From: Patescibacteria group bacterium
GTDB taxonomy: Bacteria; Patescibacteriota; Patescibacteriia; Magasanikbacterales; GWA2-37-8
NCBI GenBank assembly: GCA_041661385.1
Contig: JBAZUP010000002.1
Location: forward strand, 78,670-142,669
DNA: 64,000 nt
Direction: 5' to 3'
The position numbers were made by a program, and so were the translations under genes. The notes beneath the pieces were generated by a model that made no database searches, had not been told where the DNA came from, and saw only the letters and a list, made by a program, of their open reading frames with translations. Shown in pieces: positions 3,238 through 60,085 of this stretch. Positions within the stretch are counted from its first letter, which is position 1; each line of letters opens with the position of its first letter.

Positions 3238-6200
3238 ATGCGCGATAGGTTTAGAAAATTTTCAAAATTAACGCTAGTGTCGTTATTTTTATTTGTTTTA
3301 GTTTTTGGTGATTTAGTATTAATGAATAGAGTTAATGCGCAGCCGGATGGTTCGGTCGCGGATTTTGCGGCCTTAGATGCAGGAGGGGGTGTTCCGGTAA
3401 CAGATATTGGTGCGTCGGTTTCACGATTGATGTCGAGTATTAAAGCCTTAATTAAATCCGCCTTGATTAGCGGCGGTATTCGAGCGGCTTCATATGCGCT
3501 TCGAAAGGTTGCGTTTGATTCTGCGGTTTGGGTGGCATCTGGTGGCAAAGGTCAAAGTCCGCTTGCACATACTGGAGGATTTGGCGGTTATTTAAAAAAT
3601 GTGGGCGATGAGGCTGCCGGAACTTTTATTTCTGAAATGAGTAGTAAAGCGGGGGTAAACCTTTGTAAAGTGCCGGATATTAAAATTGATTTAGCCATTA
3701 AAGTCGGTCTTCGTACCAGATTTGGCGGCGGACCACCGGCCAAACCAGTCTGTACGCTCAGCCAATTTACAAAAAATTGGAGCAGTGGTGAAGCTTGGAG
3801 CAAATATTCCGATCCAAACAAGCTTGCAAAAAGTTTTAGTTCGAGTATTATCGCCAATGATAGTGATTTAGGTATTTACATCGCGGCCACGGAAAAAATA
3901 AATAATAAAATTATACAACAAAAAGAAGCGGCAACTTTAGATCGACAAGAAGGTGATGGTATTAAATCTCTAAATACCCTGATTGGAGATCAGATAAAAA
4001 CTCCCGCTGCTCTTGTAAAAAAAACAGTCGAAGGTCTTGATCCGGCAGAAACCCTTAAAAAAAATGAGGCCTTGTTAAACTCCGCTTTAGCAGGTGGTGA
4101 TGCCAAGGTTTTTCCGGCAGTATTAAGTATTTTTCTTAGTACTTTAGGCGGTACAATTCTTAATAATTTTCAAACAAAAGGTATTTTGCCAACCGGTATG
4201 TGTGCCGGGGGTATTGGCGGACCTGGTTGTAGTAATGGTTCCGGGTCTTATAATAACCCGCTCTTTAACGAAAGCGGGGAGGGTCTTACTTCACTTGGCC
4301 GGGCAGCGGCAAAAAGTTTTTTTAATTATTTAACAGCGGTTAAAATCAAGGAAGTCAATCGCTATGATTTGGCTTCACAGCTTAACAGCTGTCCGGATTC
4401 GCCGGGTATTTATAATTGCCGCGCGGGAGATGATTTAACAAATGCAATCGATCAAAAAATTACTATTGAAGACGCGATAAAACTGGGTATACTCGATGGC
4501 AACAAAAAATTAATTCCGGATGATGTTAAAACTCGTTCAATAAGCAATGATTTGAATTGTTATTTAAGCGCTTATTGTTTGAATAATGTAAAAGTTTTAA
4601 GACAGCTCAGAATTTTACCGCTAGGTTTTGAAATTGCGATTTCACGTTCTAATCCTAATGATTTATCCACGCTAAAAAGCGTGGTTGATGCGTTTAACGA
4701 TAAAAATTCCTCTTTTTATCATCTTATTGATCCGCGCTGGGTGATAAAAGCTCCCGAAGCAAAGTGTAATGCGTTGGTAAATAGCGCCAGTTTGCTTGGA
4801 GCAGATCTGCCAGCTCGTCTTCAAGATTGTGTTGATTTGCAAACCTGTGTCGGTTACGACAACAACGGTAATTGTATCGATTATGGATATTGTACTCGTG
4901 AACAAAATACATGGAAATTTCCCGCCGATAAATGTTCGGAGCAATTTGCGACTTGCGCGGTATTCCAAAATTCAAAAGGAAATTCTGTAGGTTATATCAA
5001 ACGCACCCTCGACAGCGCTTACTGCACCCAAAGTAATGATGGCTGTACCGCTTATAGTCTTTCAAGAAATTCACTCAATCAGTGGGTCGCTCCGCAATTT
5101 CCAGCGACAGCCAGCGCGAACGCCGGAATATTTTTAAACTCTAAAGCTGAAACAGATTGTTCGGCGAATTCGGCCGGGTGTTCAATTTTTAAAATTGCTT
5201 CCGCGAATTCCAATGATTATTTGAATATTAAAAAAGCACCAGATTATTTAGGGTGTTACGATAGTAACCCTGCAACTCCAGCCATAGACTGGCCGCAAAC
5301 AGCTATTGATCTCGGCCGGCTTTCCACCAATTCAGAATGTAATAATTATGCAAAAGCTTGTACAGCCGATGAAGCCAGTTGTAATTGGTATACTCCGAAA
5401 AATGGCGGTATCAAATTGCCGGGCCGATTTGTTCCGGCCGTTGTTACGACTTCTTCCGTAATTTGGAATGATCAATGTGACGCCCGTTGCGAGGGGTATA
5501 ATGTTTACCGCGAAATGCCAAGTAATTATTCCAATGGTCAGGATCTTGCTTATATAATTCCTTCTTCCGGCAAAACTTGTGTTGCGGAAGACGAGGGTTG
5601 CTCTAGCTTTACGAATCTGAGCACTGCTGTCGGCGGGGTAGAAAATACCGAATATTATTCTTATCTCCGGCCTTGTATTACCATGTCCGAAGCGACCAGC
5701 ACAGTCGCAAAGACCTTTATTACTTATGAAGGTTCCAAAGAAAATGGTTTTCAACTTCATACTTATTTAATGTTGTTTAACCAAGGCACAACGGACGTTC
5801 CACAAAACGGACCAGCTGGCTCGCCAAAATATTTTTATAAAGATCCGGCCGAACTTGCCTCGTTAAATAATGAATGTACCGAGCAAAGATATAAAGACGG
5901 TGTCGCATCGCTTGATTGTCGCCAGTTCAATGACAAAGACGGCAATATTTATTACCGAATGATTTCGCATACGATACCCGCGAATGAAAAATGTACCGGT
6001 TATCGTTTGAACGACCCGGAATTTTATGTTGATGCAACGATTGTAACGCCCGATGCCTGTCAAACTCGACTGGGTAATTGGACCAATTCTGGCGGTGCGA
6101 ATGTTTGTGAAATGTGTGTTCAAAATGGTGAATACCGTAATGGCGCCTGTATCTATTCTGGAATACCAACCGGCGTTCAAAATCCGGCCGGTGTCAGTCG

Positions 6201-9200
6201 CTCTTGTGGCGCTTCGGCAGATACTTGTCGCGCCTACAAAGGCAATGCCGGAAATAATATTCAAACCGTCTTTAGTGAAAATTTTGAAACCGCGAGTTCT
6301 AGCGACGGTTGGGTTGGTGGTGGATTCAGAGCGTTAGTTTCTACCCGCGTGGGTGAATATTCATTTGAACATGATGGCGGCGGTGCGTTTAGTAAGTCTC
6401 TCACTTTGGAACCTGGCAAGAGCTACGATCTTACCTTCTGGGCTTCGGCCGCGAGCATGGCCAATGTGACAGTGTCTTTGAATAATGGCACTGCGAATAC
6501 CATGGGTGTAGTAAGTGTCTCCGGTGTTTGGAGGCAATATCACCTTGGCACTATTGAATTAAAAGGTGCTAATCCGTCTGTGCAATTAACCTTTAATCAC
6601 GCGGCGGGCGATTCGATATATCTAGATAATATTAAATTGGTAAAAGTTGCCAGTTATTTATACTTGGTAAAAAATTCTCTTAGCGTTGATCCGGTTTGCG
6701 ACAGTATTCCAAATGATAATTTACCTGGAGAGGCGCTCGGCTGTTCGGCTTATTCCGATCCGCAAGGTCGCTCCTTCTACCTTACCAACTTTAGTTTCCT
6801 TTGCCGTGAAGACGCGATTGGCTGTACCGCTCTCTTTGATACCTTTAATACTGAAAGCACTTTACCAGAGGCGTATCACGTTTGGATTCCGGGAGCCGCC
6901 AGCACCACTGTCAACGGGTCAATTCCTGCTCCATATTCCTGTAAGATCGGCGATGGTCAGAATGGTTGTTATGTAGATATTAAGGGATATAGTTTGAGTA
7001 CAATTCGGGCGGCACTTAATGGTAGTGTTGTTGCTTCAACTGTTTATATCCCCGGCGACACTCCAAGCTCAAGTCCGGTATATCTGGTCGCAAATAAAGC
7101 CGCTTCTTGTAATGAGGTTGATCTTGGTTGTTCACTTGCCGGCAAGCAGGTGTTTGGTTCAAATGGATGGCAGTTTATGACCACCACCATAAAAAATGTT
7201 CCTGCGTCTTATGCCGATACGCTTTGTGAGAGTCAGGCAACCGGTTGTAGCGCTTTCTCCGAAGGTGATTCCATTTCATATTTTAAGGATCCGTCCGTAG
7301 CAGGACAAACCTTATGTGCTTATCAAACCGATGTGCCGGTCGCAAATGGCACTTCGGGTACGAAACGGCAAAATGGCTGGTTCTTGAAAACCCGAGTGGG
7401 AATTTGCAGTAATAGTTCGAGTTTAACTTGCCACGAGAATACAGCGGCCAGTGACTGTGGTGTGGGTACCGCGGTTTGTACCCAATTAACCTACGATCCA
7501 TGCTATCCGGCCGAGCCGCAAACCACTATTGGTTATGATTTATTATCCTTTGGAACTACCGGTTATCAAAATATTGTTGGCGAGTGTCCGTCCGATCAAA
7601 ATAAATGTACTGAAATTATTGATCATGCCGGCAATTCAAGTAACAGAAAAAATTATTTAATATTTGACGACAAACTTACTTCGGGTGACTGTGCCGGGCA
7701 AGTAAGTCAAAAGCTGGGGTGCGCTCTTTTTGATCAAACGGATAATCCGATAAAATTATGGCACACCACCAGCACCTATGCGTTTAGCGAAACAGTCGAA
7801 AATGTTTTGGTTTCGCCATCTTCAACTTCAAACAACGATGCAAATTTAATTTTGAAAGTAGTCCCAGATCGTTCTTGCGGAGAATGGCTCTCGTGCGGCA
7901 GTTCATATTCAGTTTACGATGATCAAACCGGTAAATATCGAAATGTTTGCAATCGTATCCAACGCTGTAATGGCTCCACTTGCAGTGGCGTAAATGCTAC
8001 TTATGCTAATTCTATTTTAAACTCAGATATTTATACAGCACGAACCACCACTTGGGCTGGTATGGATTATGCCGGTTATTCGCTCTTGGGTTTTTATCCG
8101 GTCGAAAGATTTGACCAGGTAAACATGGTAACCTCGACCGACAACCCCGATTGGCGCTTGGTAAAGAAAGTTCCGTGCGGCGTTATTAGCGGAGTCAGTA
8201 ACTGTACTACCGGTAGTGTAAATATTTATAGCTGTGGCGAACCGAGCGGATATGTCGATGGTTTACCATGTGGCACTGAATCAGTACCGGGTGTATGTAT
8301 GAATCACATTTGTGTTCAGCCTCCAACCGGTGTAGACACTGCTATCACTCAGCAAGAACTTGCCGATATTTCGCCAAGTCACAGTTGCCGAGCTTATCCC
8401 GAATCCGATTCGCCATTCCCACGCACTCAAAAAATTATAAACGGCGGAGCATTTAGTGGTGTCCATATTTGTAGTGAAGAAAATCCAAATGGCTGCGAAT
8501 GTAATTATCGCAAAGTTTCTTATGGCGATTCAATTATAAAATATTGGAATTATTCCGGAAATGATTCAGTCGATTCAAAAATCGGCAATTTAAACGGTAA
8601 CGATCCGGTTGGTATTTGTTTGGGCGGTACGGGAGAGGGTAATAGCTGTTCAACCGATAGCCAATGCCCCGAGGGAGCTTGTCAGTTTAAATCGGGCACA
8701 GTGCGAAAACTTTTGGGTTGGAAAGGTTTTTGTTTAGAAAAAGATACTAGCAGAGTTTTGAATGCTGACCCGGCCGTAAACCCATGTCTCACTTGGTTCC
8801 CGGTAGAATCGCTGGTCGGTGCAGCCGATATATATAATCAGCATACCGAGGCGGGCACAGATTGGCACGCGACTCCTCACAATGGCGGATATTATTGTCT
8901 TAGTTCCTCCGGAACTTCCACAACCAGAACCGCCAGAATCGCATTTTCACCGTCTGGTCTTTTTGCACAGGATCCTCGTCAAGATCAGTGTGGCAACAGA
9001 GGTGCGTTTGGATTAGCTGATTGCAAAACTGAAAATTGTGGGAATGGTTGTAACTATCAATATACTAGGGAAATATTTTCCAGAAATATTATTGATATAC
9101 CAAGTCAAACTGAAATACTTGAAAATAATACGAGTAGAGCTTATGTAGCAGCTACTGATTTAGTTGGAATTAAAAAAGAAGATATTGGCGTTATAAAAAT

Positions 9201-11142
9201 TAGCACACTTACCGGTACAGGTGGGGCATATAATATTCCGGTTGGAAGTAATTTTTATCTTAATCCAAATGATTTACCAAATGGTACGCCCCAAACTTAT
9301 TATCATCTGGTAAATAATTTCGGTGAAATGTCGGCTGTAGTGGGTGGTTTTTATCGTGGCAATCCTAATGATTTATTATTATTTTATAGCAGCTCAGATC
9401 AGATTCCAGCAGTAAGTAATAATATCGGTCTAGATGTTAATACTGGGTTATTTAATTATTATTTTAGAGAAGCAAACGTTTATGATTTCCCTGGTTTAGT
9501 TGGCAATTTATTTTCCACAACTCCATCGTTTAAAGCGGGTACTATACAAGTCGATGATATTTGGGATGCGAATATAAGTAATACTTATGTAATTGCCGCA
9601 CCTGCTACTCAGATTCCTGATCCCTATTCTGACCCCATGAACCCCACATATATAGATGTTCCAGCGACAGTTAATACGGGTTTTTGTCCAACCGATTTAA
9701 TTATAAATGGTAGCCACGGTCATTACGATGCGCCATATACATGGCACGCAATTCGTTTTAGGTTTGATCCATACACTCATCAATTAGTTAATGTATACAC
9801 TGCATTTTGTGGGCCCGTTAGAGGGGCAGATGATGTTGTATATCAAATATCTTTCCAAACTCGCGAATGGTGTACTGATTTGGCGAACGATCAAATTGAT
9901 TTAGCGCGATCGAGCGGCCAGCGCGCTATTGCTTGGACCGATCGACTCTTTAGCCTACCAAAGAGTCCGCCATTTTCTGTGCCCGATCTCGGATTTACTT
10001 ACGATACTATTAATCCCGCGTTTGGCAGTATTTCTCCGGTGTTAAATCCGCCTCTAAATCAACCGGTATCTCTCAGTCCCGCTCCGTCGATTGATTGTTC
10101 AAGTTACAATTCAAATACCAGTAACTGCAGTTCGTTTGCGCAACCTCTTATCAACAATTCCCATACTGGATCGGCTTACAGCAGAAATTCCACTTTTCCA
10201 AATGATGTGCCTTATTGTGTTCGAGGTCCTTGTCTAATTCGGAATCCGTTTACTAACGCTTGTATGGCTTATTTTATAGACTGTTCATTGGCACGGCCGC
10301 CAGCAGCCGGTGGAAACAATTATTTGCTTACGGTATTTGCCGCTCATAATAATATTCTAAGTTATCGAACTTCTACCGCTTCTTATGTAAATAATGCTGT
10401 GTCGACAATGCCATTAAATATTACTCAATCCGGAGATTATATTACTGGTGTTCAGCCCAAACCGCCCGAAATTCACCCACTCGGTCGGAGTGTGTCTGGT
10501 ACCGGAAGTAATGCCGGAGTTTATTATGAGGAATTGCCGGCGCTGGGTTTTTCAGTGAACAATTCGAGTACCGGACAAGTGGTGTCCGCTCTTGGCAATG
10601 GGTATAATTTTTCCTTGGATTTCTTCATGTTTGCCGACAAAAATCAAATGCCGATTCGCTCGGTCACGATTGATTGGGGAGATGGGTATGCTCCTGTTCC
10701 GAATGCCGGATCTTTCCGCAATCAGCGTGGTGTTACTTCTACCGCTCCGTTAAAATTGCAGTGTCAGCCTCGGGCGAGCGCCATTGATTTCGGTCATATT
10801 CTTGATCAAACTTGCGACAACGCATATTTCCACGCCGAAAATATTTATTCCTGTGCTGGTTCGGCCGGCAATGTCTGTGCTGGGTTGAATGACAGTAATT
10901 GCTATGTCCCTGCGAATGATGCTCGAAATTTATGTCCTACTGCTTACCAAGCATCCGGTTGTTGTTTCTTCAAACCAAAGGTTAGAATTATAGATAATTG
11001 GGGGTGGTGCAATGGAAGTTGTATTGCAGGAAATGGTGGTTGTTATGATGCCTCGGTGAGTGGTGGAATTAATCAATGTAAAGAAGATCCGCGTTCTTGG
11101 ACAACATTTGGTGGTACAGTTGTTGTACCTAGCAGTAATTAA
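3238..11142 (+). CDS. giant (2634 aa) Cys-rich secreted/surface protein with CBM4/9-like beta-sandwich segment
   Basis: Uninterrupted 7.9-kb ORF. N-terminal signal/TM (LTLVSLFLFVLVFG). Very many paired cysteines. Segment near nt 6270-6640 (WVGGGFRALVS...SYDLTFWASAA...IYLDNIKLVKV) resembles carbohydrate-binding modules. Intrinsic terminator follows directly. Confidence 0.7.
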   Translation: MRDRFRKFSKLTLVSLFLFVLVFGDLVLMNRVNAQPDGSVADFAALDAGGGVPVTDIGASVSRLMSSIKALIKSALISGGIRAASYALRKVAFDSAVWVASGGKGQSPLAHTGGFGGYLKNVGDEAAGTFISEMSSKAGVNLCKVPDIKIDLAIKVGLRTRFGGGPPAKPVCTLSQFTKNWSSGEAWSKYSDPNKLAKSFSSSIIANDSDLGIYIAATEKINNKIIQQKEAATLDRQEGDGIKSLNTLIGDQIKTPAALVKKTVEGLDPAETLKKNEALLNSALAGGDAKVFPAVLSIFLSTLGGTILNNFQTKGILPTGMCAGGIGGPGCSNGSGSYNNPLFNESGEGLTSLGRAAAKSFFNYLTAVKIKEVNRYDLASQLNSCPDSPGIYNCRAGDDLTNAIDQKITIEDAIKLGILDGNKKLIPDDVKTRSISNDLNCYLSAYCLNNVKVLRQLRILPLGFEIAISRSNPNDLSTLKSVVDAFNDKNSSFYHLIDPRWVIKAPEAKCNALVNSASLLGADLPARLQDCVDLQTCVGYDNNGNCIDYGYCTREQNTWKFPADKCSEQFATCAVFQNSKGNSVGYIKRTLDSAYCTQSNDGCTAYSLSRNSLNQWVAPQFPATASANAGIFLNSKAETDCSANSAGCSIFKIASANSNDYLNIKKAPDYLGCYDSNPATPAIDWPQTAIDLGRLSTNSECNNYAKACTADEASCNWYTPKNGGIKLPGRFVPAVVTTSSVIWNDQCDARCEGYNVYREMPSNYSNGQDLAYIIPSSGKTCVAEDEGCSSFTNLSTAVGGVENTEYYSYLRPCITMSEATSTVAKTFITYEGSKENGFQLHTYLMLFNQGTTDVPQNGPAGSPKYFYKDPAELASLNNECTEQRYKDGVASLDCRQFNDKDGNIYYRMISHTIPANEKCTGYRLNDPEFYVDATIVTPDACQTRLGNWTNSGGANVCEMCVQNGEYRNGACIYSGIPTGVQNPAGVSRSCGASADTCRAYKGNAGNNIQTVFSENFETASSSDGWVGGGFRALVSTRVGEYSFEHDGGGAFSKSLTLEPGKSYDLTFWASAASMANVTVSLNNGTANTMGVVSVSGVWRQYHLGTIELKGANPSVQLTFNHAAGDSIYLDNIKLVKVASYLYLVKNSLSVDPVCDSIPNDNLPGEALGCSAYSDPQGRSFYLTNFSFLCREDAIGCTALFDTFNTESTLPEAYHVWIPGAASTTVNGSIPAPYSCKIGDGQNGCYVDIKGYSLSTIRAALNGSVVASTVYIPGDTPSSSPVYLVANKAASCNEVDLGCSLAGKQVFGSNGWQFMTTTIKNVPASYADTLCESQATGCSAFSEGDSISYFKDPSVAGQTLCAYQTDVPVANGTSGTKRQNGWFLKTRVGICSNSSSLTCHENTAASDCGVGTAVCTQLTYDPCYPAEPQTTIGYDLLSFGTTGYQNIVGECPSDQNKCTEIIDHAGNSSNRKNYLIFDDKLTSGDCAGQVSQKLGCALFDQTDNPIKLWHTTSTYAFSETVENVLVSPSSTSNNDANLILKVVPDRSCGEWLSCGSSYSVYDDQTGKYRNVCNRIQRCNGSTCSGVNATYANSILNSDIYTARTTTWAGMDYAGYSLLGFYPVERFDQVNMVTSTDNPDWRLVKKVPCGVISGVSNCTTGSVNIYSCGEPSGYVDGLPCGTESVPGVCMNHICVQPPTGVDTAITQQELADISPSHSCRAYPESDSPFPRTQKIINGGAFSGVHICSEENPNGCECNYRKVSYGDSIIKYWNYSGNDSVDSKIGNLNGNDPVGICLGGTGEGNSCSTDSQCPEGACQFKSGTVRKLLGWKGFCLEKDTSRVLNADPAVNPCLTWFPVESLVGAADIYNQHTEAGTDWHATPHNGGYYCLSSSGTSTTRTARIAFSPSGLFAQDPRQDQCGNRGAFGLADCKTENCGNGCNYQYTREIFSRNIIDIPSQTEILENNTSRAYVAATDLVGIKKEDIGVIKISTLTGTGGAYNIPVGSNFYLNPNDLPNGTPQTYYHLVNNFGEMSAVVGGFYRGNPNDLLLFYSSSDQIPAVSNNIGLDVNTGLFNYYFREANVYDFPGLVGNLFSTTPSFKAGTIQVDDIWDANISNTYVIAAPATQIPDPYSDPMNPTYIDVPATVNTGFCPTDLIINGSHGHYDAPYTWHAIRFRFDPYTHQLVNVYTAFCGPVRGADDVVYQISFQTREWCTDLANDQIDLARSSGQRAIAWTDRLFSLPKSPPFSVPDLGFTYDTINPAFGSISPVLNPPLNQPVSLSPAPSIDCSSYNSNTSNCSSFAQPLINNSHTGSAYSRNSTFPNDVPYCVRGPCLIRNPFTNACMAYFIDCSLARPPAAGGNNYLLTVFAAHNNILSYRTSTASYVNNAVSTMPLNITQSGDYITGVQPKPPEIHPLGRSVSGTGSNAGVYYEELPALGFSVNNSSTGQVVSALGNGYNFSLDFFMFADKNQMPIRSVTIDWGDGYAPVPNAGSFRNQRGVTSTAPLKLQCQPRASAIDFGHILDQTCDNAYFHAENIYSCAGSAGNVCAGLNDSNCYVPANDARNLCPTAYQASGCCFFKPKVRIIDNWGWCNGSCIAGNGGCYDASVSGGINQCKEDPRSWTTFGGTVVVPSSN

Positions 11143-15400: not shown

Positions 15401-16231
15401 GCACAAGAAAAAATTCTATTAAGAAGGATTGCTGTAGAATCGGCGCCGGGAGGTGATCGGCGTAGGCTTGAAACTGCACAAGCAATGCGAGCTGCTTTAA
15501 CGCGATTAAATACAGCATCAGATGCTTCTTCGGCTCGAGACGGACGACAGGCCGCTGCGAGTGAATTGGGGGTTACCCAGATAGACGATACAAATAGTTT
15601 TATGGTTGAATTACAGCGGCTTACTGGTAATAGGAGTAATAATATAAATATTTTAAAAGCCGCTTTTGAAGCGAGGTTTAGAGGTGACCGGGTACAAAAA
15701 CAAGCGGCGTTAAGAGGATTATTTGAAGCTTACAAAAAAGCGGCTGAACGGGGAGATGAAACAGCGTTAGGCTTTATTAAAAAAGATTTAGTTGGTGCAT
15801 CAGGAAGTGAGACACTTAATTTTGAATGGGCAGCTGATCAAACGGACGCTAACAAATATGCCACGACGTATGGTACTTTTTTTGCGGAAAGAGCAAAGGG
15901 GCAAGTTGATACGATTGCTCCGATGTCTGGAAAAACTAAACAATCTGCGAGTGGTGAATGGGTAATGAATGGACAGACTACACAAGGACGTAAATCAATT
16001 GTCGCTTTTCATAAAGGAAAAGATGGAAGAGAGATGTCACAAAAAGATATGACTCCAGTTTACGCTTCTTGGAATAGTGCAGAAGTGAATGGGGCAAATG
16101 TTGCAGAGTATGTTCAAACAATGCAGGAGATAAAAAATGCCATGCCAGATGATGGATGGAGAAAATTCGAAGAAAATGTGAAAGATCTTAAAGCAAAAAT
16201 GGCCGCTTTTGGAGGTACCTGGCCACCGTAG
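12461..16231 (+). CDS. VirB6/TrbL-like polytopic membrane protein with long C-terminal charged coiled-coil extension (1256 aa)
   Basis: About 340 aa of multiple TM helices, then about 850 aa of E/K/R/A/Q-rich predicted coiled coil. It is the first gene of a cluster containing VirB4. Extended VirB6 proteins are known in Gram-positive and Rickettsiales T4SS. Confidence 0.5.
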   Translation: MTIENIVKKLVSWKKITRNQKAIFLSTLFLFIFGLFFAVLPASAQTNTFVGNSFFDALLISMSRVMMVVAQTCLQLLMFVLTFIIQIAAYNNYLDSTAVNTGWILIRDLTNMVFVVALLAIAFGTILGIEHYEWKHMLFKLVSAAILVNFSRIICGILIDISQVVMMTFLNGIAATMGGNLIRTFSLEKIQSFRPGVSGALIDPATVFITAMAAVFISVTILVVMGIMLGMLVGRMIVLWVLIVLSPVAFVLGVLHQTEHYASEWWGEFGKNVITGPVLIFFIWLTLVTVGSGVMDQEMNNATTGVPKPETINVGIADVLSGGKLVNFAIAIGMLLVGLRVTQHLGGIGAEWTGKAVSIGKKAAMAVSGVALARDMAKSAGGAVRDYGQQSYKNLVSAPKALASMGLSKIKMTRDNIAQGFEKGGKKMIELKSLRDRKIISEKEYQARVKGDEVALGQVYNEKAFSQSREEGDKYRAQLEAENKLLKPADRLSKSQIALKVMQRQQEVIANVQREKEKALADSPKKGGVFQSTAAGRVAGSVLGSIFQSQSRATSRAENWAQAAESLKVRAGNEESTSATLGGQVKLKQGVLEHASVERGKAKSQQKKDEEAQALIATEDETFHELEEGARKAKAAGTVAQAYVSGHEALAQQKADQKAGVYRAKTKQEIEEGLARARDNSGVALEREKLISEPLMVRGNKIDYIDHTPESLKLAESHIDSLVSDEGEREKLKQKAEAMHMEASRKREEAIGVQRKEAVAAQETAAGAKAKEQLAKEGDYRLREQRITGFTAEMNQIQDKLTAERQNELLTSIRNLLESEVGLTRQQQIASFQAGNKMQEDRTGGIKEREALAARRELMASADSRRELRETEQQKAQNKQQEERLSGIGEREAGRAKRDLLATTGGQNEQAKIYRTRGQEELDKSLAEDPQIMMQAREKAAIYRRNGDPLRAEATLKSASAQVDKKYSELFSGLTYDDRMAQEKILLRRIAVESAPGGDRRRLETAQAMRAALTRLNTASDASSARDGRQAAASELGVTQIDDTNSFMVELQRLTGNRSNNINILKAAFEARFRGDRVQKQAALRGLFEAYKKAAERGDETALGFIKKDLVGASGSETLNFEWAADQTDANKYATTYGTFFAERAKGQVDTIAPMSGKTKQSASGEWVMNGQTTQGRKSIVAFHKGKDGREMSQKDMTPVYASWNSAEVNGANVAEYVQTMQEIKNAMPDDGWRKFEENVKDLKAKMAAFGGTWPP

Positions 16232-17510
16232 AAATATAAATATGACTTTAAACCTAAAAGATAGTCAGCAGCTAGAATCAAAGCTAGTAGAAAATTCACA
16301 AACACCACAAGGGCGTGAGAATGTTTGGGTTTTTTTGCATTCTTATTTTCTTAATGCAACACCAGACGACGACAAAAAAGTTCGACTGACTTTATTTCGT
16401 TGGTATACAGACTTGACCTGGAAAAGAATAAATTTACTTTCAAATGAAGATTTTGTAAATGTCGCTTTTGGTCGACAAGTACCACTCGCTTTACTTCTCG
16501 GGTTTGATATTCAAAAAATTCTTTTTGATTATTTAAATTTTCGATGCCCAGAAAAGGAAGACATGGTGGATGTTTATGCAAAAACAAAAAATGCTTTTAT
16601 GAATTCTGAGGCTTTTCTTGGTTCGTTGGACGGAATTGAATATGGCGTAAAAGATATTATACCGGATATAAAAAAATATAATTTAGAAAGCCTGTCTACT
16701 TTAGAAAAAGCGACTATTACAGAAAAATTAACAAAAATATTGTTTCCCAAGAAAGATGAATTATTTAATCAATATATATTTACCGAGCCAACTCAGGTTG
16801 TTGATTGGTTTATCGGGTTGGTAAATTTTTTCATGGGTGTAAAAGCTGAGGATATTAAATTGATAGTGGACGGTTATAATAGAGAAGAGGATGAAGAAAT
16901 TATTAAAATATCCGAAAATAATAAAAAAATTGCACAAAAAGAGACAGAAAATAAACCATTCGAATTAAAACAATCGGAATCGATGAAAAATGTTATTCCG
17001 GTTATAAAACCCGAAGAGCCAAAAAAGCCGGAAATAAAAATTGAGGCTAAAAAAGAGATAAAACCCGAAGCGAAAAAAGAAATTAAACCTGAAATTAAAC
17101 CAACTGAAATTAAGGCCGGCGCAAAAACGCCGGAGAAAACTGATGACTCTATGTTTTTCTCAAAAAAATCAACTTCGCCAAAGAAACAAGAAGGTGAAGT
17201 AAATCACAATGTCGATGAAAACCTAAATGCTCCGAAGGCCCTGACACGTTCGCCAATTTTATCTGGTCATAAAAAGCCAGAAACGACGACGGGGGTAACC
17301 AATCGAAGATTGTCTTATAAGGAAATAAGAAAGCAATTAGAAAGCCGATTTGCAAAGGACTCGTATGGGCATTTCTTGAATGTGACAGATGTGCTGAACG
17401 AGTTGCAAAAAATTTCTGTTACGCAAGAAGATCCGCACATAAAAGATTTGTATTATTTTAATGAACAAGCTGGAGGATTTGAGTGGAATGAAAATTTACT
17501 CAAAGATTAA
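16209..17510 (+). CDS. hypothetical protein with KPE/KKEIKPE tandem repeats
   Basis: Real start is probably ATG at 16239 (MTLNLKD). Lys-Pro-Glu repeats (EIKPEAKKEIKPEIKPTEIK), no TM. Sits between the VirB6-like gene and the Pro-rich gene. Confidence 0.45.
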   Translation: MEVPGHRRNINMTLNLKDSQQLESKLVENSQTPQGRENVWVFLHSYFLNATPDDDKKVRLTLFRWYTDLTWKRINLLSNEDFVNVAFGRQVPLALLLGFDIQKILFDYLNFRCPEKEDMVDVYAKTKNAFMNSEAFLGSLDGIEYGVKDIIPDIKKYNLESLSTLEKATITEKLTKILFPKKDELFNQYIFTEPTQVVDWFIGLVNFFMGVKAEDIKLIVDGYNREEDEEIIKISENNKKIAQKETENKPFELKQSESMKNVIPVIKPEEPKKPEIKIEAKKEIKPEAKKEIKPEIKPTEIKAGAKTPEKTDDSMFFSKKSTSPKKQEGEVNHNVDENLNAPKALTRSPILSGHKKPETTTGVTNRRLSYKEIRKQLESRFAKDSYGHFLNVTDVLNELQKISVTQEDPHIKDLYYFNEQAGGFEWNENLLKD

Positions 17511-17512
17511 TT

Positions 17513-18964
17513 ATGTCTGATCAAGACGAAATAAAAATTTTAGTAAAGAAATCTGACGGCAGTTTTATACACATGCCGATTTCGGAAGTTCAAAAACACA
17601 ATCGGCTGACACCGACTGCGTCTTCCGCCGAGCCTGTTTTATCAAAACCGGCGGCTTTTAATCCCGCTGCGCCATTTGCTTCTGTACAGCCGGTTGCACC
17701 TGCTGCACCTCAAAAGCCAGCTGCGCCAGTTGCCCCTCAAAAACCAATTGAAAAACCGGTTGAAAAGAAACCGGAAACAATGCCAGTTGTAAAACCGGTA
17801 GAAAAAAATGAAGCATCGAAACCTAAATTTAATCCAAAAGAAAATGCCAGATTAGAAAAAGAAATTCCGGCGGTAATCAAAGCGGCGCCGGTAGTAAAAA
17901 ATACGCCACCGGTTGCAAGTGCGCCAATAAAAAATATTTCGGCGGCAGTACCACCCATTCCGGTTACGCCACCCCAATCGAAACCAGTGGTACCAAAAAT
18001 CGAACCGGTTAATTTGTCAGTAGTATCTGAAAAGAATGATATGGGTTCGCTGCTGGATGAAAAATTACCGAATGAAAATAAACTCACTCCGCTTACCAGT
18101 GAATCAAGAGATAAGCAAGTTGATGAGATAATTAAAAGTATTGGTTTTAAAATACCTCCTGGAAATAATAGTAGAGTAAAAACAATCATTCAATTATTTT
18201 TAAAAGAAGTTCGAGGCAAGGAAGAAACAATGGAAATTTTACGCCGGCCCGAAATTGATGGGGGAGTTGGTTTGTCCGATGAACAAGTAAATGAAGTTTT
18301 AGAAAAATGCAGTAAAACTACGGTATCAGCTGCCGGCAGTTTTTCCGTGCCATCGTTAAAAACTGTGCCGAAAATAACCGTGCCGATGCCAAATAAACTA
18401 GCAGCGATTCAAATAACAAGAATTACGAATTCGCAAGTAAGCACAAATGACAATAAGCGCTTAGAAGCAGAGTTGCCGGCTGTGGTAATAAAAACAGCAG
18501 CCCCAAAACTGCCGCCAAAACCAATTGCGACTGGAGATGCTAGAAAAATTTTAGAAGAACAAATAACTAAAAATACAATGTCGGAATTACCTGGTAATTT
18601 TACGATTAATTCCGATCGAAATAAAACGACCATGTCGGATGTAAAATCGGCTCCGGCTCAAATGGGACCGATTGAGGAAATTCGTTATTTTAGTTTGGTA
18701 GATTTTCGTAGGTTGTCCGGAGATCCGACCGAGGCTGCCAATCGGTTGAAACAAAAGTTTTTAAATCTTCACGAGGAATCAGTAGTTTTTTATTTTGAGG
18801 GGCTCGACGCCTGGAAAATTTCGCCGCTTTATCACGATTATATAAATTTGGTAAGTGAGGCGATAAAAAAACGCCAGACGCTGGCGCAAGTTGCAGTAGA
18901 TAAATCCAGAATACAAGTTTCGGAAATAAGCGCGCTTATTAAAATGGAAAAAGAATTAGGCTAG
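17513..18964 (+). CDS. hypothetical Pro/Ala/Lys-rich repeat protein
   Basis: PAAPQKPAAPVAPQKPIEKPVEKKPETMPVVKPVEK low-complexity repeats. Start is 3 nt after the preceding gene. Confidence 0.5.
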   Translation: MSDQDEIKILVKKSDGSFIHMPISEVQKHNRLTPTASSAEPVLSKPAAFNPAAPFASVQPVAPAAPQKPAAPVAPQKPIEKPVEKKPETMPVVKPVEKNEASKPKFNPKENARLEKEIPAVIKAAPVVKNTPPVASAPIKNISAAVPPIPVTPPQSKPVVPKIEPVNLSVVSEKNDMGSLLDEKLPNENKLTPLTSESRDKQVDEIIKSIGFKIPPGNNSRVKTIIQLFLKEVRGKEETMEILRRPEIDGGVGLSDEQVNEVLEKCSKTTVSAAGSFSVPSLKTVPKITVPMPNKLAAIQITRITNSQVSTNDNKRLEAELPAVVIKTAAPKLPPKPIATGDARKILEEQITKNTMSELPGNFTINSDRNKTTMSDVKSAPAQMGPIEEIRYFSLVDFRRLSGDPTEAANRLKQKFLNLHEESVVFYFEGLDAWKISPLYHDYINLVSEAIKKRQTLAQVAVDKSRIQVSEISALIKMEKELG

Positions 18965-18965
18965 T

Positions 18966-19406
18966 ATGCAACAATTTACCGTACCACAATTTATTGATGT
19001 TGAAGATAAAATTTTTGGTCCTGTTACAGCCCGTCAATTTAGTATTATGATTGGGGCGGTTGGTCCGATATTTTTAGCTTATAAACTCGCAGATTTTGCT
19101 TTATTTGTATTTATCGCGATTTTAATCGGCGGCACGGCAGCGATGTTTGCTTTTGTGCGCATAAATGGACAGGCTTTTCATTATTTTGTTTTAAATATTT
19201 TACAAACCTTACGTCGTCCAAGTCGTCGTCTTTGGTATAAAAGTTATACGAACGCTTCTTTGCAGGATTTTTTAAATTATGAAAAGCAAAATGTAAAAGA
19301 TAAATTGGATGCGGAAGATAATAAAATTGAAAAAAAAGTTATTTCCAATACGCGCATCAGAGATTTGTCGCTATTAGTGAATACCGGCGGGTATTTTAAA
19401 GTTTAA
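18966..19406 (+). CDS. small 2-TM membrane protein, VirB3/PrgI-like candidate
   Basis: 146 aa with two hydrophobic helices (IMIGAVGPIFLAYKL, ALFVFIAILIGGTAAMFAFV). Position just upstream of VirB4 matches prgI/virB3 in Gram-positive-type T4SS. Confidence 0.4.
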   Translation: MQQFTVPQFIDVEDKIFGPVTARQFSIMIGAVGPIFLAYKLADFALFVFIAILIGGTAAMFAFVRINGQAFHYFVLNILQTLRRPSRRLWYKSYTNASLQDFLNYEKQNVKDKLDAEDNKIEKKVISNTRIRDLSLLVNTGGYFKV

Positions 19407-19415
19407 TTTAAAAAC

Positions 19416-20102
19416 ATGAAAAGCAAAACCGAAGAAAAAAAGAAGAAAAGCATGGTTACGACCCAAAACCATTTGCTTATTTCTGAAATTAAACAGGACA
19501 CTGTAATAATGAAAGACGGTACTCTTCGCGCTGTTATTATGGTTTCGAGTATTAATTTTGCGTTAAAAAATGACGACGAACAAAATGCGATTATTCAGTC
19601 TTATGTCGGTTTTTTAAATTCACTCGACCATCCCTTGCAGGTCGTAATTCAATCTCGCAAATTACAAATCAAACCATATATCGACCGCCTAATTCAGCAG
19701 GAGCGCAATCAGACAAATGATTTATTGCGCACCCAAACCGCCGATTATCGGTCGTTCGTACTTGAGCTTGTAAAGCTTGGTGAAATTATGAACAAGCAAT
19801 TTTATGTGGTAGTTCCTTATGATCCGATTTCAAATAAAACAAAAAGTTACTGGAGTCGCGTGAAGGAAGTTATAAATCCTACGGCGGCGATTTCTTTAAA
19901 AGGTAAAAAATTTGATGAGCGCAAGAAAGATCTCGACAGCCGGGTACACCTTGTTGAAAGCGGTCTAACCAGCATTGGCTTACAAATTGCGAGGTTAAAT
20001 ACCCAATCGCTCATTGAACTATATTACTCAACTTATAATACTGACATTGCTTTGGTTCAGGAACTTGCCCCAATTGAGCAATTGCAGGTAGAAACAGAAT
20101 AA
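19416..20102 (+). CDS. VirB4/TraC N-terminal domain-like protein (first part of a split VirB4)
   Basis: LLISEIKQDTVIMKDGTLRAVIMVSSINFALKNDDEQNAIIQSYVGFLNS resembles the N-terminal region of VirB4/TrbE. It is in the same frame as the next ORF, separated by one TAA at 20100-20102. Confidence 0.5.
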   Translation: MKSKTEEKKKKSMVTTQNHLLISEIKQDTVIMKDGTLRAVIMVSSINFALKNDDEQNAIIQSYVGFLNSLDHPLQVVIQSRKLQIKPYIDRLIQQERNQTNDLLRTQTADYRSFVLELVKLGEIMNKQFYVVVPYDPISNKTKSYWSRVKEVINPTAAISLKGKKFDERKKDLDSRVHLVESGLTSIGLQIARLNTQSLIELYYSTYNTDIALVQELAPIEQLQVETE

Positions 20103-20105
20103 AAT

Positions 20106-22004
20106 TTGAGGTATAATGTAACAACTATGGCATTTAAGCCCACTAATCAAACAATTGAATCAAAGACCTCCGAGTCATTACTTGATAAGCAAAAAAATGT
20201 AATGAAAGATCGGGCCGAATCTGAGTTAGTAACGCTTGAGGAAGAGCGTATTTTTCGCGAGGGTGTAGTTTCGATTCGAGATCTTATTGCTCCGGCGGCA
20301 TTTAATGTTGAATCTAATTTTTTACAAATTGGTACCGCTTTTGCGCGAACAATTTTTGTCGCTTCTTATCCACGGTATATTTCTATTGGTTGGAGTTCGC
20401 CGATTATTAATCTTTCGGTAACCATGGATATCGCGATGTTTTTTTATCCGGTTAAATCTGAAATAATTTTAAAACAGCTTCGAAATAAAGTCGGTGCGCT
20501 CGAAGCGCAGATAACCTCGGATTCGGAAAAAGGCGCGCCTCGCGATCCGATTCGTGAAACCGCTCTTCGAGATATTGAAAAACTTCGTGATGATCTTACT
20601 CAAGGAATTGAACATTTTTTTCAGTTTGCTTTTTATGTCACTATTTATTCAGAATCCAAAGAAAAACTCGATACCGTATCGGCGGATGTCGAAAGCATTT
20701 TGGGCGCAAAATTAATCGGTACAAGAAAAGTATTGTTTCAATCTGAACAGGGTTTCAATTCGACCCTTCCGATTGGCGTGGATGAAATTATGGTTTCATT
20801 CAACATGAATTCAAGTCCGATTGCCGCTTCTTTTCCGTTTATTTCCGCCGAGCTTACTTCGGACAGCGGTATTCTTTATGGAATAAATCGCCATAACAAC
20901 AGTTTAATCTTGTTCGACAGATTTTCGCTTCAGAATGCCAACATGGCGGTATTTGCTACTTCCGGTGCTGGTAAAAGTTATTGCGTAAAACTGGAAATTT
21001 TGCGTACCCTCATGATGGGAGTAGATGTCATTGTTATTGATCCGGAAATGGAATATAAACATCTTAGTGATGCAGTCGGCGGTACCTACATAAATATTTC
21101 ACTTTCTTCGGAAAGTAAAATTAACCCATTTGATTTACCTCGGCCGGTCGGCCAGTCGATATCCGTCGAAGATGTTATTCGTGGCGCTGTCATTACCACC
21201 AAGGGCCTTTTGCGTATTATTTTTGGCGGTTTAAGCACTGCTCAGGACTCATTAATTGATCGGGCGCTCATTGAAACCTATGCCAAAAAAGATATTACCG
21301 CTGATTCTGATCTGGCCACCGTTCAGCCGCCGATTATGCAAGATTTGCTGGAAATTTTGGAAGGTTTAGAAGGCTCCGAGGAATTGGTGATGAAGCTGAA
21401 AAAGTTTACGGAAGGTACTTTTAGCGGTCTCTTTAATTCACCGACCAATGTCGATATAAAAAATCAACTGGTGATATTCAGCGTGCGAGATTTGGAAGAC
21501 GAACTTCGCCCGATTGCTATTTATACAATTATCAATTATATTTGGAACGTCGTTCGTTCTGAAACAAAAAAACGTATCTTGGTTATTGATGAGGCTTGGT
21601 GGCTTATGCAGCACGAAGATAGCGCCAGATTTATTTTTGCCCTGGTTAAGCGCTGCCGTAAGTATTATTTGGGAGTAACCACTATTACGCAGGATGTAAA
21701 TGATTTCTTGAAATCTCAATATGGACAGGCGATTGTCACGAACACTGCTTTGCAGATGCTTATGAAACAATCTCCGTCGGCGATTGATCTGATTCAAAAA
21801 GTATTTATGCTTACGGATAGTGAAAAATATCTTTTGCTAGAAAGCGGTGTTGGTGAGGGAATATTTTTTGCCGGTTTCAAACACGCGGCGATTAAAGTCG
21901 TTGCATCTTATACAGAAGACCAGATCGTTACAACTAATCCGGAACAACTGCTTCAGATTGAAAGAGCTAAAAAAGAATTTCAAGATCAACTTAAAAAAGA
22001 ATAA
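20106..22004 (+). CDS. virB4: VirB4/TrsE-family type IV secretion ATPase (ATPase domain)
   Basis: Walker A VFATSGAGKSYCVK, Walker B ILVIDEAWWLM, and VirB4-like C-terminal motifs. First ATG is at 20127; the track start at 20106 is TTG. Confidence 0.8.
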   Translation: MRYNVTTMAFKPTNQTIESKTSESLLDKQKNVMKDRAESELVTLEEERIFREGVVSIRDLIAPAAFNVESNFLQIGTAFARTIFVASYPRYISIGWSSPIINLSVTMDIAMFFYPVKSEIILKQLRNKVGALEAQITSDSEKGAPRDPIRETALRDIEKLRDDLTQGIEHFFQFAFYVTIYSESKEKLDTVSADVESILGAKLIGTRKVLFQSEQGFNSTLPIGVDEIMVSFNMNSSPIAASFPFISAELTSDSGILYGINRHNNSLILFDRFSLQNANMAVFATSGAGKSYCVKLEILRTLMMGVDVIVIDPEMEYKHLSDAVGGTYINISLSSESKINPFDLPRPVGQSISVEDVIRGAVITTKGLLRIIFGGLSTAQDSLIDRALIETYAKKDITADSDLATVQPPIMQDLLEILEGLEGSEELVMKLKKFTEGTFSGLFNSPTNVDIKNQLVIFSVRDLEDELRPIAIYTIINYIWNVVRSETKKRILVIDEAWWLMQHEDSARFIFALVKRCRKYYLGVTTITQDVNDFLKSQYGQAIVTNTALQMLMKQSPSAIDLIQKVFMLTDSEKYLLLESGVGEGIFFAGFKHAAIKVVASYTEDQIVTTNPEQLLQIERAKKEFQDQLKKE

Positions 22005-22010
22005 AAATAT

Positions 22011-22601
22011 ATGCCATTAAGAACACGAATTTTTATAATGATTGGTGCCGGGGTATTTGTTATCGGGGTAATAAGTATTTTTATAATTTTTAAGTTTGGC
22101 AAAAAGCCGGTCACAACTCCGCCGGTTCAGGAACAGGTAACCATTAATCAAACAAATGATCAGGTTAATGTAAAAGTTGGCACCGAACCGACTGTCGTGC
22201 CAAAGAATGTAAAGATAACCCCTCCGACTGCAATTCAGCAGGAAGATATTACGGTAAAAAATATCGCTCGAGTTTATATTGAAAGATATCATACCTATTC
22301 TAGCGAAAATAATTTTCAAAATATTCGTGATATTGAATCAATTGTCACTGCAGCCTATTGGAAAAAAATCAGCGCGCCAATGGTCGCAAAAATAGCGCCT
22401 CCGGCTAGTTTTGTTTCTTTAACAACCGAGGTGCTTAGCATATTATCAGTTGATGTAAAAAGCATCAGCGCATCGGTGGCGTTAAACACCCGTCAAACTG
22501 CTATCGCAAACGGACAAACTACTGTTAGCTTTAAAGAATATACCGTGACGCTTGTTAAGTCTGGTGGTAGCTGGCTGGTAAGTGGAGAGACTGCAAAATA
22601 G
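22011..22601 (+). CDS. bitopic membrane protein, VirB8-like (NTF2-fold) candidate
   Basis: N-terminal TM (IFIMIGAGVFVIGVISIFIIF). C-terminal about 120 aa has an NTF2-like character ending SGGSWLVSGE. Directly follows VirB4. Confidence 0.35.
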   Translation: MPLRTRIFIMIGAGVFVIGVISIFIIFKFGKKPVTTPPVQEQVTINQTNDQVNVKVGTEPTVVPKNVKITPPTAIQQEDITVKNIARVYIERYHTYSSENNFQNIRDIESIVTAAYWKKISAPMVAKIAPPASFVSLTTEVLSILSVDVKSISASVALNTRQTAIANGQTTVSFKEYTVTLVKSGGSWLVSGETAK

Positions 22602-22603
22602 TT

Positions 22604-23236
22604 ATGGTTACGGGGGAAGTAAAAGAAAAAATAAAGGATTTTTTGTTTCCGTATTTTTGCGCAGGCTGTAATAAAGAAGGGGAATGGTGGTGCAAAAACT
22701 GTCGCAAAACTGAAGTAGCACCTTCTATTATAAAGGCCGAAGCTGGGCTAGAAGCTGTTTCGGTTCTTTTTAATTATGATGAACATTCGGCAATTGGTTA
22801 TCTTATTAAACAGTTCAAATACAATTATGTTAAGGATATTTCGGAATTATGGAGAGCTGTTATAGTAGAAGCTAATTTATATTTTGAAAATAATACCATG
22901 CTTATTCCGGTTCCGCTTTTTTGGCGTCGAGAGCGAGAAAGAGGGTATAATCAGGCAAATATTTTAGCTCAAATATTGGCGGAGGTTTCCAAAAAAGAGC
23001 CGGTTCTGCATGCTCTAACTAGAGTTCGGCCGACCTTGCAACAAGCAAAACTTAATCGCGCTGAGCGGCAAATAAATGTTTTAAATGCTTTTGAGTGGCG
23101 GGCAAGCTATGTTCCAGAGCGGGTTGTCTTGGTGGACGACGTTTATACCACCGGAGCGACCATGAAAGAGTGCGCAAGCGTATTAAAACAGGCGGGGGTA
23201 AAGAAAGTCTCTGGTTTTGTATTGGCGCATGGATAG
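22604..23236 (+). CDS. comFC: competence protein ComFC (phosphoribosyltransferase-type)
   Basis: N-terminal Cys cluster (CAGCNKEGEWWCKNCR), PRTase motif VLVDDVYTTGATM. Confidence 0.75.
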   Translation: MVTGEVKEKIKDFLFPYFCAGCNKEGEWWCKNCRKTEVAPSIIKAEAGLEAVSVLFNYDEHSAIGYLIKQFKYNYVKDISELWRAVIVEANLYFENNTMLIPVPLFWRRERERGYNQANILAQILAEVSKKEPVLHALTRVRPTLQQAKLNRAERQINVLNAFEWRASYVPERVVLVDDVYTTGATMKECASVLKQAGVKKVSGFVLAHG

Positions 23237-23296
23237 GTGTAATATTGACTTGCTCAATTGAAAATGCTATTATGTAAGGGTTATTTTATTGAAAAA

Positions 23297-23368
23297 GCCG
23301 CGGTAGCTCAGTGGTAGAGCGAAGGCCTGAAGAGCCTTGCGTCGTGGGTTCGATCCCCACCTGCGGCA
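23297..23368 (+). tRNA. tRNA-Phe (GAA)
   Basis: Hand-folded cloverleaf: acceptor gccgcgg/ctgcggc, anticodon loop ctGAAga, T-arm gtggg-ttcgatc-cccac. No encoded CCA. Confidence 0.85.
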
Positions 23369-23471
23369 CGCTGTCCACCCCGACCCCCGACTTAAGACAC
23401 CTTCGGTTTCTTACGTCGCTTCGCTCCTATCTTTCCACTGCGGGGTGTCCAGATTTGCCTCAGGCAAATAA

Positions 23472-23545
23472 CGGGCTATGGCTCAATTGGCTAGAGCGTC
23501 TGGTTTGGGACCAGAAGGTTGTGAGTTCAAGTCTCACTAGCCCGA
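23472..23545 (+). tRNA. tRNA-Pro (TGG)
   Basis: Acceptor cgggcta/tagcccg, anticodon stem tctgg/ccaga with loop ttTGGga, T-arm gtgag-ttcaagt-ctcac. Confidence 0.85.
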
Positions 23546-23550
23546 CACGT

Positions 23551-57299: not shown

Positions 57300-58862
<1,563 letters not shown>

Positions 58863-59581: not shown

Positions 59582-59658
59582 GGGCAATTAGCTCAGTTGG
59601 TTAGAGCGTTACATTGACATTGTAAAGGTCAGAGGTTCAACTCCTCTATTGCCCACCA
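59582..59658 (+). tRNA. tRNA-Val (GAC), CCA encoded
   Basis: Acceptor gggcaat/attgccc, anticodon stem ttaca/tgtaa with loop ttGACat, T-arm agagg-ttcaact-cctct. Confidence 0.85.
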
Positions 59659-60011: not shown

Positions 60012-60085
60012 GGGCGTGTAGCTCAGATGGTTAGAGCGCGTCACTGATAATGACGAGGTCCCCGGTTCGATTCCAGGCACGCCCA
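60012..60085 (+). tRNA. tRNA-Ile (GAT)
   Basis: Acceptor gggcgtg/cacgccc, anticodon loop ctGATaa, T-arm cccgg-ttcgatt-ccagg... No encoded CCA. Confidence 0.85.

Follow-up and report, generated by a model that had tools for sequence, protein, structure and literature searches.

The junction between the two reading frames

Does a single TAA codon break the gene for VirB4, the motor ATPase of a type IV secretion system (T4SS), or does it end one gene before the next begins? The question is raised by a forward-strand gene cluster in the window, by which we mean the whole 64,000-nt stretch of DNA analysed here and to whose positions all coordinates refer. An open reading frame (ORF) encoding 228 aa starts with ATG and ends with TAA at 20100-20102 (19416..20102), and the same phase then stays open from 20103 up to a second TAA at 22002-22004. 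An earlier note on this DNA described VirB4 as interrupted by the in-frame TAA, and offered a recent nonsense mutation, a sequencing or assembly error, programmed stop-codon readthrough, or a genuinely two-piece VirB4 as explanations. The last of these is very probably correct: the split is the normal, conserved two-gene arrangement of a chromosomal T4SS in a Patescibacteria (Candidate Phyla Radiation, CPR) bacterium related to Candidatus Magasanikbacteria, in which the first gene ends at its own TAA, the second starts independently at ATG 20127, and the shared frame is a coincidence. The motor of the T4SS is intact, not interrupted.

We confirmed on the sequence the coordinates and starts of the 228-aa and 632-aa ORFs and the frame that they share, as the earlier note had given them. 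The second ORF (20106..22004) reaches 632 aa when read from TTG 20106, its first possible start; its first ATG lies at 20127. The TAA does separate the two ORFs, but the note had placed two sense codons after it, and only one (AAT, 20103-20105) precedes the TTG; the TAA and ATG 20127 are eight codons apart. A joined translation across the junction would read ...QVETE-x-NLRYNVTTMAFKP..., and a translation from TTG 20106 would begin M-RYNVTTMAFKP. Long ORFs in the window end with TAA, TAG and TGA alike, TAA being the commonest normal stop. An altered genetic code was rejected, given that all three codons terminate long ORFs there.

The two products together correspond to one VirB4

The 625-aa product read from ATG 20127 is a VirB4-type ATPase, as had been proposed for the second ORF. 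It matches the NCBIfam model conju_CD1110 (NF045971) with 351.3 bits against a cutoff of 325, as well as the Pfam families P-loop_TraG, AAA_10 and DUF87. The match covers only positions 172-728 of the 752 in conju_CD1110; the ATPase alone fails to span this profile as a single polypeptide, and positions 8-96 are matched by the separate 228-aa protein. The VirB4 N-domain-like character ascribed to the first ORF was also borne out, with matches to VirB4_plasma (profile positions 92-253 of 894, E 3.5e-9) and to TrsD/TraD (NF041427; 31.9 bits, E 1.1e-7). When the pair is concatenated, the score against conju_CD1110 is 365 bits, residues 4-825 align in one stretch to positions 92-889 of the 894 in VirB4_plasma (311 bits), and residues 26-799 align to positions 19-725 of the 792 in TIGR00929. 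Because the concatenate aligns colinearly to full-length VirB4 models, the two products together make up one VirB4.

Several further observations bear on the identity of the 228-aa protein. Its position follows the layout of the NF041427 type, in which a stand-alone protein of ~200-230 aa lies between a VirB3-like gene and virB4. Precomputed tables assign PF26593 ('TraC-like') to all 120 of its best homologs and to an identical copy on contig L091, described below. A Pfam scan of the protein itself returned nothing even at E<=10, in a Pfam copy that apparently lacks the PF26593 model. Residues M1 and K2 hardly vary across the homolog alignment. A Foldseek search with its AlphaFold model placed TrwK/VirB4 chains of the R388 T4SS in all of the top 13 PDB matches, and a PDB sequence search with the family profile of the protein gave zero matches at E<=1. 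Comparison of the gene for the 228-aa protein (hereafter the N-gene) with four orthologs gave a non-synonymous divergence (pN) of 0.14-0.20 and a saturated synonymous divergence (pS) of 0.75-0.86. These values mean strong purifying selection on the N-gene and are incompatible with a decaying fragment.

Conservation of the split in related loci

We next compared the junction with those of relatives. The 228-aa protein has 6293 homologs in a large protein collection, and the best 120 of them (63-93% identity) are all stand-alone proteins of 215-245 aa. Likewise, the best 120 ATPase homologs (79-100% identity) are all stand-alone and measure 590-643 aa, including a database protein (P0271) that is 100% identical to the window's ATPase over 625 aa. 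Homologs of both proteins carry the labels Ca. Magasanikbacteria or Patescibacteria. When 50%-identity cluster representatives were searched exhaustively with the 228-aa protein, without a profile, the best 150 hits measured 124-478 aa, and none of these 150 had an ATPase-like tail. About one-third of the distant TrsD-like representatives are longer, at 290-478 aa (P0169, P0178, P0210, P0225 and P0253), with N- or C-terminal extensions that are not ATPase-like.

A survey of the junction itself fetched 7 genome and 80 metagenome loci, of which ~83 are orthologous (7 genome, ~76 metagenome); in the metagenome loci, the identity of the N-terminal protein is 60-81%. In every one of the ~83 orthologous loci the first gene stops at the homologous position. 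The earlier note had left it to such relatives to decide between a single fused VirB4 of about 860 aa and the same split: all ~83 loci are split, and the best 120 homologs of either half include no fused form. Across 85 loci, a count that includes the window and a distant fused Rubrobacter locus (L010), the stop codon at the junction is TAA in 67, TAG in 13 and TGA in 5. The spacer after the stop varies from 1 to 314 nt among the orthologs and is conserved neither in length nor in sequence, most orthologous junctions having 1-13 nt. It is followed in the ~83 loci by an ATG and a conserved M[A/P]F[K/R]P N-terminus (MAFKP in the window). Since this conserved start follows a variable spacer in the orthologs, the ATPase truly begins at ATG 20127.

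The frame of the ATPase gene relative to the first gene is not conserved either. In the 85 loci it is 0 in 25, +1 in 39 and +2 in 21, and an independent, duplicate-free recount of 68 distinct junctions gave 18, 34 and 16, respectively. Frame 0 thus accounts for ~26-29% of loci, and 71-74% of junctions are out of frame. Adjacent gene pairs share a frame one time in three, so with frame 0 in 25 of 85 loci or 18 of 68 junctions, the in-frame relation in the window is what chance would give.

The junction also recurs in a separately deposited contig, L091 (ENA ERZ27249449, k141_1461118, 55.7 kb), which is identical to the window over 17127-22614, a span that takes in the TAA at 20100-20102 and the spacer, and which differs further downstream. 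Three single-nucleotide polymorphisms separate the two at 22615-22636, and L091 loses register from 23548, after the tRNA-Pro gene, apparently through an indel of ~200 nt. This difference is strain-level variation beside the 3' end of a tRNA.

Alternative explanations

Three of the explanations offered for the TAA (nonsense mutation, sequencing error and programmed readthrough) are in effect ruled out. If a recent nonsense mutation had truncated a fused VirB4 of ~860 aa and left the motor a pseudogene, the two ORFs would be expected to lie in frame and close together, as they do, with only 24 nt from the stop to the next ATG. This account is almost certainly wrong: the stop occupies the same place in ~83 orthologous loci down to 60% identity; the orthologous junctions use three stop codons, variable spacers and all three frames; no fused or otherwise uninterrupted form occurs among the 120 closest homologs of either half; the N-gene has a pN/pS far under 1, with no relaxation of selection; and both the Walker A and Walker B motifs of the ATPase are intact. 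A TAA created by a sequencing or assembly error would draw on the in-frame arrangement alone, and we give it practically no credence, given the stop at this place in all orthologs and the base-for-base identity of L091 across 17127-22614, TAA included, in a deposit that is separate but possibly built on shared reads.

Programmed readthrough of the TAA at 20100, which would yield some fused full-length VirB4 besides the separate products, is physically permitted by the in-frame arrangement here and in about one-quarter of the relatives. It is nonetheless very improbable, as 71-74% of the orthologous junctions are out of frame, the spacer is unconserved in length and sequence (the context after the stop, to which the earlier note had pointed, is not conserved among the orthologs), TAA is the commonest normal stop in the window, and an ATG and N-terminus of its own are conserved in the ATPase. 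The two-piece option of the earlier note stood as to the two genes and the start at ATG 20127; its other proposed start, TTG 20106, did not. In favour of that TTG, no possible start in the open frame precedes it, and some database homologs are 631 aa long. Against it, ~83 orthologs have ATG and M[A/P]F[K/R]P at the site that corresponds to 20127, the sequence 5' of this ATG is unconserved, often out of frame or reduced to 1 nt, and the 100%-identical database entry is 625 aa long; initiation at the TTG is accordingly a highly unlikely choice.

The conserved two-gene arrangement has to be weighed against several points that tell in the opposite direction. The NF041427 match of the 228-aa protein lies far under the curated cutoff (32 vs 200 bits); by its sequence, the protein is best described as a remote TrsD homolog outside this narrow curated subfamily. 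Its AlphaFold model is of medium confidence (pLDDT, predicted local distance difference test, 66), and the Foldseek matches to TrwK/VirB4 are each weak (E 0.018-0.2, template modeling (TM) score 0.28-0.35), which is why we take them as supporting evidence only. The GAGG in the spacer sits 15 nt from ATG 20127, so that any account of ATPase initiation is tentative, and the physical association of the two polypeptides is inferred. The junctions and alignments above do show two separately terminated and separately initiated genes, both conserved and under selection and together colinear with VirB4.

Proposed working of the gene pair and initiation of the ATPase

In the two-gene arrangement, the first gene (19416-20102) supplies a 228-aa TrsD-like protein homologous to the N-terminal part of VirB4, and the second, from ATG 20127, supplies the 625-aa remainder, including the ATPase domain. 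The two would probably assemble non-covalently, with the TrsD-like protein standing in for the N-terminal subdomain of VirB4. The R388 structures place this subdomain at the membrane with VirB3, for which the adjacent PrgI-like protein (18966-19406) would be the counterpart here. For the ATPase, translation by coupling or re-initiation after the upstream stop is probable, or else expression from a weak internal promoter.

The spacer (20103-20126) contains no convincing Shine-Dalgarno sequence, and a recognisable one was found before none of the cluster genes, though the 16S rRNA has the usual CCUCC tail. Because the cluster lacks recognisable Shine-Dalgarno sequences and most spacers measure 1-13 nt, translational coupling is the most likely mode of ATPase initiation. 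A weak internal promoter is possible as well. The spacer holds a TATAAT hexamer (20112-20117), nine nt before ATG 20127, and a promoter scan reported TAGAAA-17-TATAAT at 20089..20117 (10/12 match); the region has no significant excess of promoter-like matches, at 16 against 9.9 +/- 3.6 expected. A TATAAT or TACAAT hexamer lies 8-11 nt 5' of the ATPase ATG in the window (20089-20126) and in the closest relatives, L001 (4688-4708), L003 (4655-4670) and L002 (near 1800-1824). In L003, it is preceded by TG and has the look of an extended -10 element. Most of the more distant junctions lack a TATAAT-like hexamer.

A different motif, resembling TTCACTCATTTCGAAT, occurs in the 16-25 nt directly before the virB4 ATG in L038, L057, L064, L051 and L086, orthologous loci whose trsD-virB4 spacers are long (76-314 nt). 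A role in regulation or translation initiation is conceivable for it.

To our knowledge, a function has so far been assigned to TrsD in no system. The TrsD-like protein might act as a detachable subunit for docking or regulation, produced in an amount unlike that of the ATPase, with the ATPase arising partly from the internal promoter at 20112-20117 on a nearly leaderless mRNA and with an occasional readthrough fusion in the in-frame lineages (about one-quarter); we regard this elaboration as rather unlikely.

For annotation, the two-gene arrangement means that labels such as pseudogene, frameshifted or "interrupted" should not be applied to the T4SS motor, and that the first ORF should be entered as a TrsD-like/VirB4-N-terminal protein, the second as a VirB4 ATPase with its start at ATG 20127.

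Gene neighbourhood

The genes and motifs of the cluster are listed in the table.

Table. Features of the T4SS gene cluster, in window positions
Feature	Position	Strand	Remarks
PrgI-family (VirB3-like) small membrane protein, 146 aa	18966..19406	+	Pfam PF12666 PrgI
TrsD-like / 'TraC-like' (PF26593) gene, 228 aa, ATG start	19416..20102	+	free-standing homolog of the VirB4 N-terminal part
TAA stop of the 228-aa gene	20100-20102	+	normal stop codon
Intergenic spacer, 24 nt	20103..20126	+	between the TrsD-like TAA and the ATPase ATG
VirB4-type conjugal-transfer/T4SS ATPase, 625 aa, MAFKPT...	20127..22004	+	ATG start, TAA stop 22002-22004
Walker A GAGKS of the ATPase, residue 280	20964..20978	+	read in translation; intact
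Walker B region VIDEAW of the ATPase, residue 486	21582..21599	+	read in translation; intact
Candidate VirB6-like polytopic membrane protein, 1256 aa	12461..16231	+	~8 N-terminal hydrophobic segments (hydropathy)
Possible VirB8-like protein, 196 aa	22011..22601	+	one N-terminal transmembrane segment (hydropathy); directly 3' of VirB4

The gene order is PrgI (146 aa), 228-aa protein, ATPase, with the PrgI-like gene directly 5' of the TrsD-like gene. The PrgI-like protein matches PF12666 with E 2.9e-9 (37.8 bits, cutoff 27) and has one long hydrophobic stretch at residues 31-68 in a hydropathy scan. The 1256-aa ORF belongs to a tightly packed row of same-strand genes; its hydropathy makes the product a candidate VirB6-like component of the same cluster, possibly an extended VirB6-like protein. 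The 196-aa protein is a possible VirB8-like component, and L091, the near-identical contig, has its gene as well. Neither Pfam nor NCBIfam yielded an assignment for the large neighbours of 2634, 1256, 433, 483 and 196 aa.

Upstream of the T4SS genes and on the same strand, the 2634-aa ORF (3238-11142) has an N-terminal hydrophobic segment. The 433- and 483-aa cluster ORFs (16209-18964), which belong to no known family, contain long low-complexity stretches rich in Pro, Lys and Ala (KPEIK repeats and PAAPVAPQKP, for example) and are conserved in L091. Directly 3' of the T4SS genes lies a gene for a ComF-family phosphoribosyltransferase-like competence protein (22604-23546; TIGR00201 E 5e-33, below cutoff), followed by tRNA-Phe and tRNA-Pro.

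Towards the end of the window lie a complete 16S rRNA gene (57300-58860), then tRNA-Val(GAC) at 59582 and tRNA-Ile(GAT) at 60012 and, after these, protein-coding ORFs. The last 3.9 kb of the window, after tRNA-Ile(GAT), gave zero matches to 23S rRNA, and the rRNA genes seem to be unlinked in this genome. Because the 16S rRNA gene, tRNAs and housekeeping genes are present in the window, the location of the system is chromosomal. The ORFs scanned between 580 and 26,714 showed neither a relaxase nor VirD4.

Comparison with known systems

The split arrangement is already known, being the documented normal state in Patescibacteria T4SSs and in Gram-positive systems of the pGO1/pSK41 type. Compared with full-length VirB4 proteins (CD1110 family, Mbov_0397 family and TrwK of R388), the concatenated window pair aligns colinearly to the full-length profiles, and the difference is that the window has the N-terminal 170-250 profile positions on a polypeptide of their own. 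The fused distant relative from a Rubrobacter plasmid (L010) is 1344 aa long. The same split between N-terminal protein and ATPase, with the genes overlapping, is found in the Bacillota megaplasmids of Pontibacillus and Geobacillus (pGspE55-1); the gene 5' of the N-terminal protein is of the PrgI family in Geobacillus pGspE55-1 and an unannotated small hypothetical gene in Pontibacillus.

The staphylococcal plasmid pSK41 (pGO1/pSK41, MPF_FATA subclass) has the same gene order with similar sizes: TrsC (a small membrane protein, 135 aa), then TrsD (227 aa) and the VirB4-type ATPase TrsE (672 aa). In this Staphylococcus aureus plasmid, the TrsD-TrsE spacer is 14 nt, the two genes are in different frames, and TrsD is annotated as TrsD/TraD family. 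The split point is equivalent, residue 52 of the window ATPase aligning to residue 36 of TrsE (E 3e-46). The homology of the 228-aa protein to pSK41 TrsD is remote only (hhalign with the N-terminal protein family, E 2.6e-5, probability 75%, 29% identity over 119 columns). In contrast to the window system, which is chromosomal and has no relaxase seen nearby, pSK41 is a conjugative plasmid that has both a relaxase and a coupling protein.

The closest counterpart is the Patescibacteria T4SS described by Quinonero-Coronel et al. 2025 (Microb Genom, PMC12102498), where TrsD homologues are the most abundant T4SS component (2,272, of which 1,664 are VirB4-associated) and TrsD is remotely homologous to the VirB4 N-terminus. 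The main text of Guglielmini et al. 2014 (PMC4027160) does not contain the term TrsD, and the TrsD-VirB4 homology is therefore cited from PMC12102498. The same paper reports that a TrsD homologue is listed as essential in a transposon sequencing (Tn-seq) study of Ca. Southlakia epibionticum. The T4SS of Patescibacteria is thus of real biological interest, being reported essential for epibiotic growth in Ca. Southlakia. The earlier note had held that the split decides whether the system works; the split is instead the conserved normal state, with a TrsD homologue listed as essential in a cultured relative (PMC12102498).

Of the components of this monoderm, MPF_FATA-like Patescibacteria T4SS, VirB4, the TrsD-like protein and PrgI are encoded on the chromosome here, and a VirB6-like role is suggested by hydropathy. 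Beyond PMC12102498, we add the analysis of frame, spacer and start codon at the level of the junction. The lineage is the same, the system is likewise chromosomal, the TrsD-like gene stands beside virB4 with a PrgI-like gene upstream, and KsgA genes, noted near virB4 in Patescibacteria (PMC12102498), have their parallel in the KsgA/RsmA gene at 1724-2575 of the window. With no material difference between the two, the window is one more instance of this arrangement.

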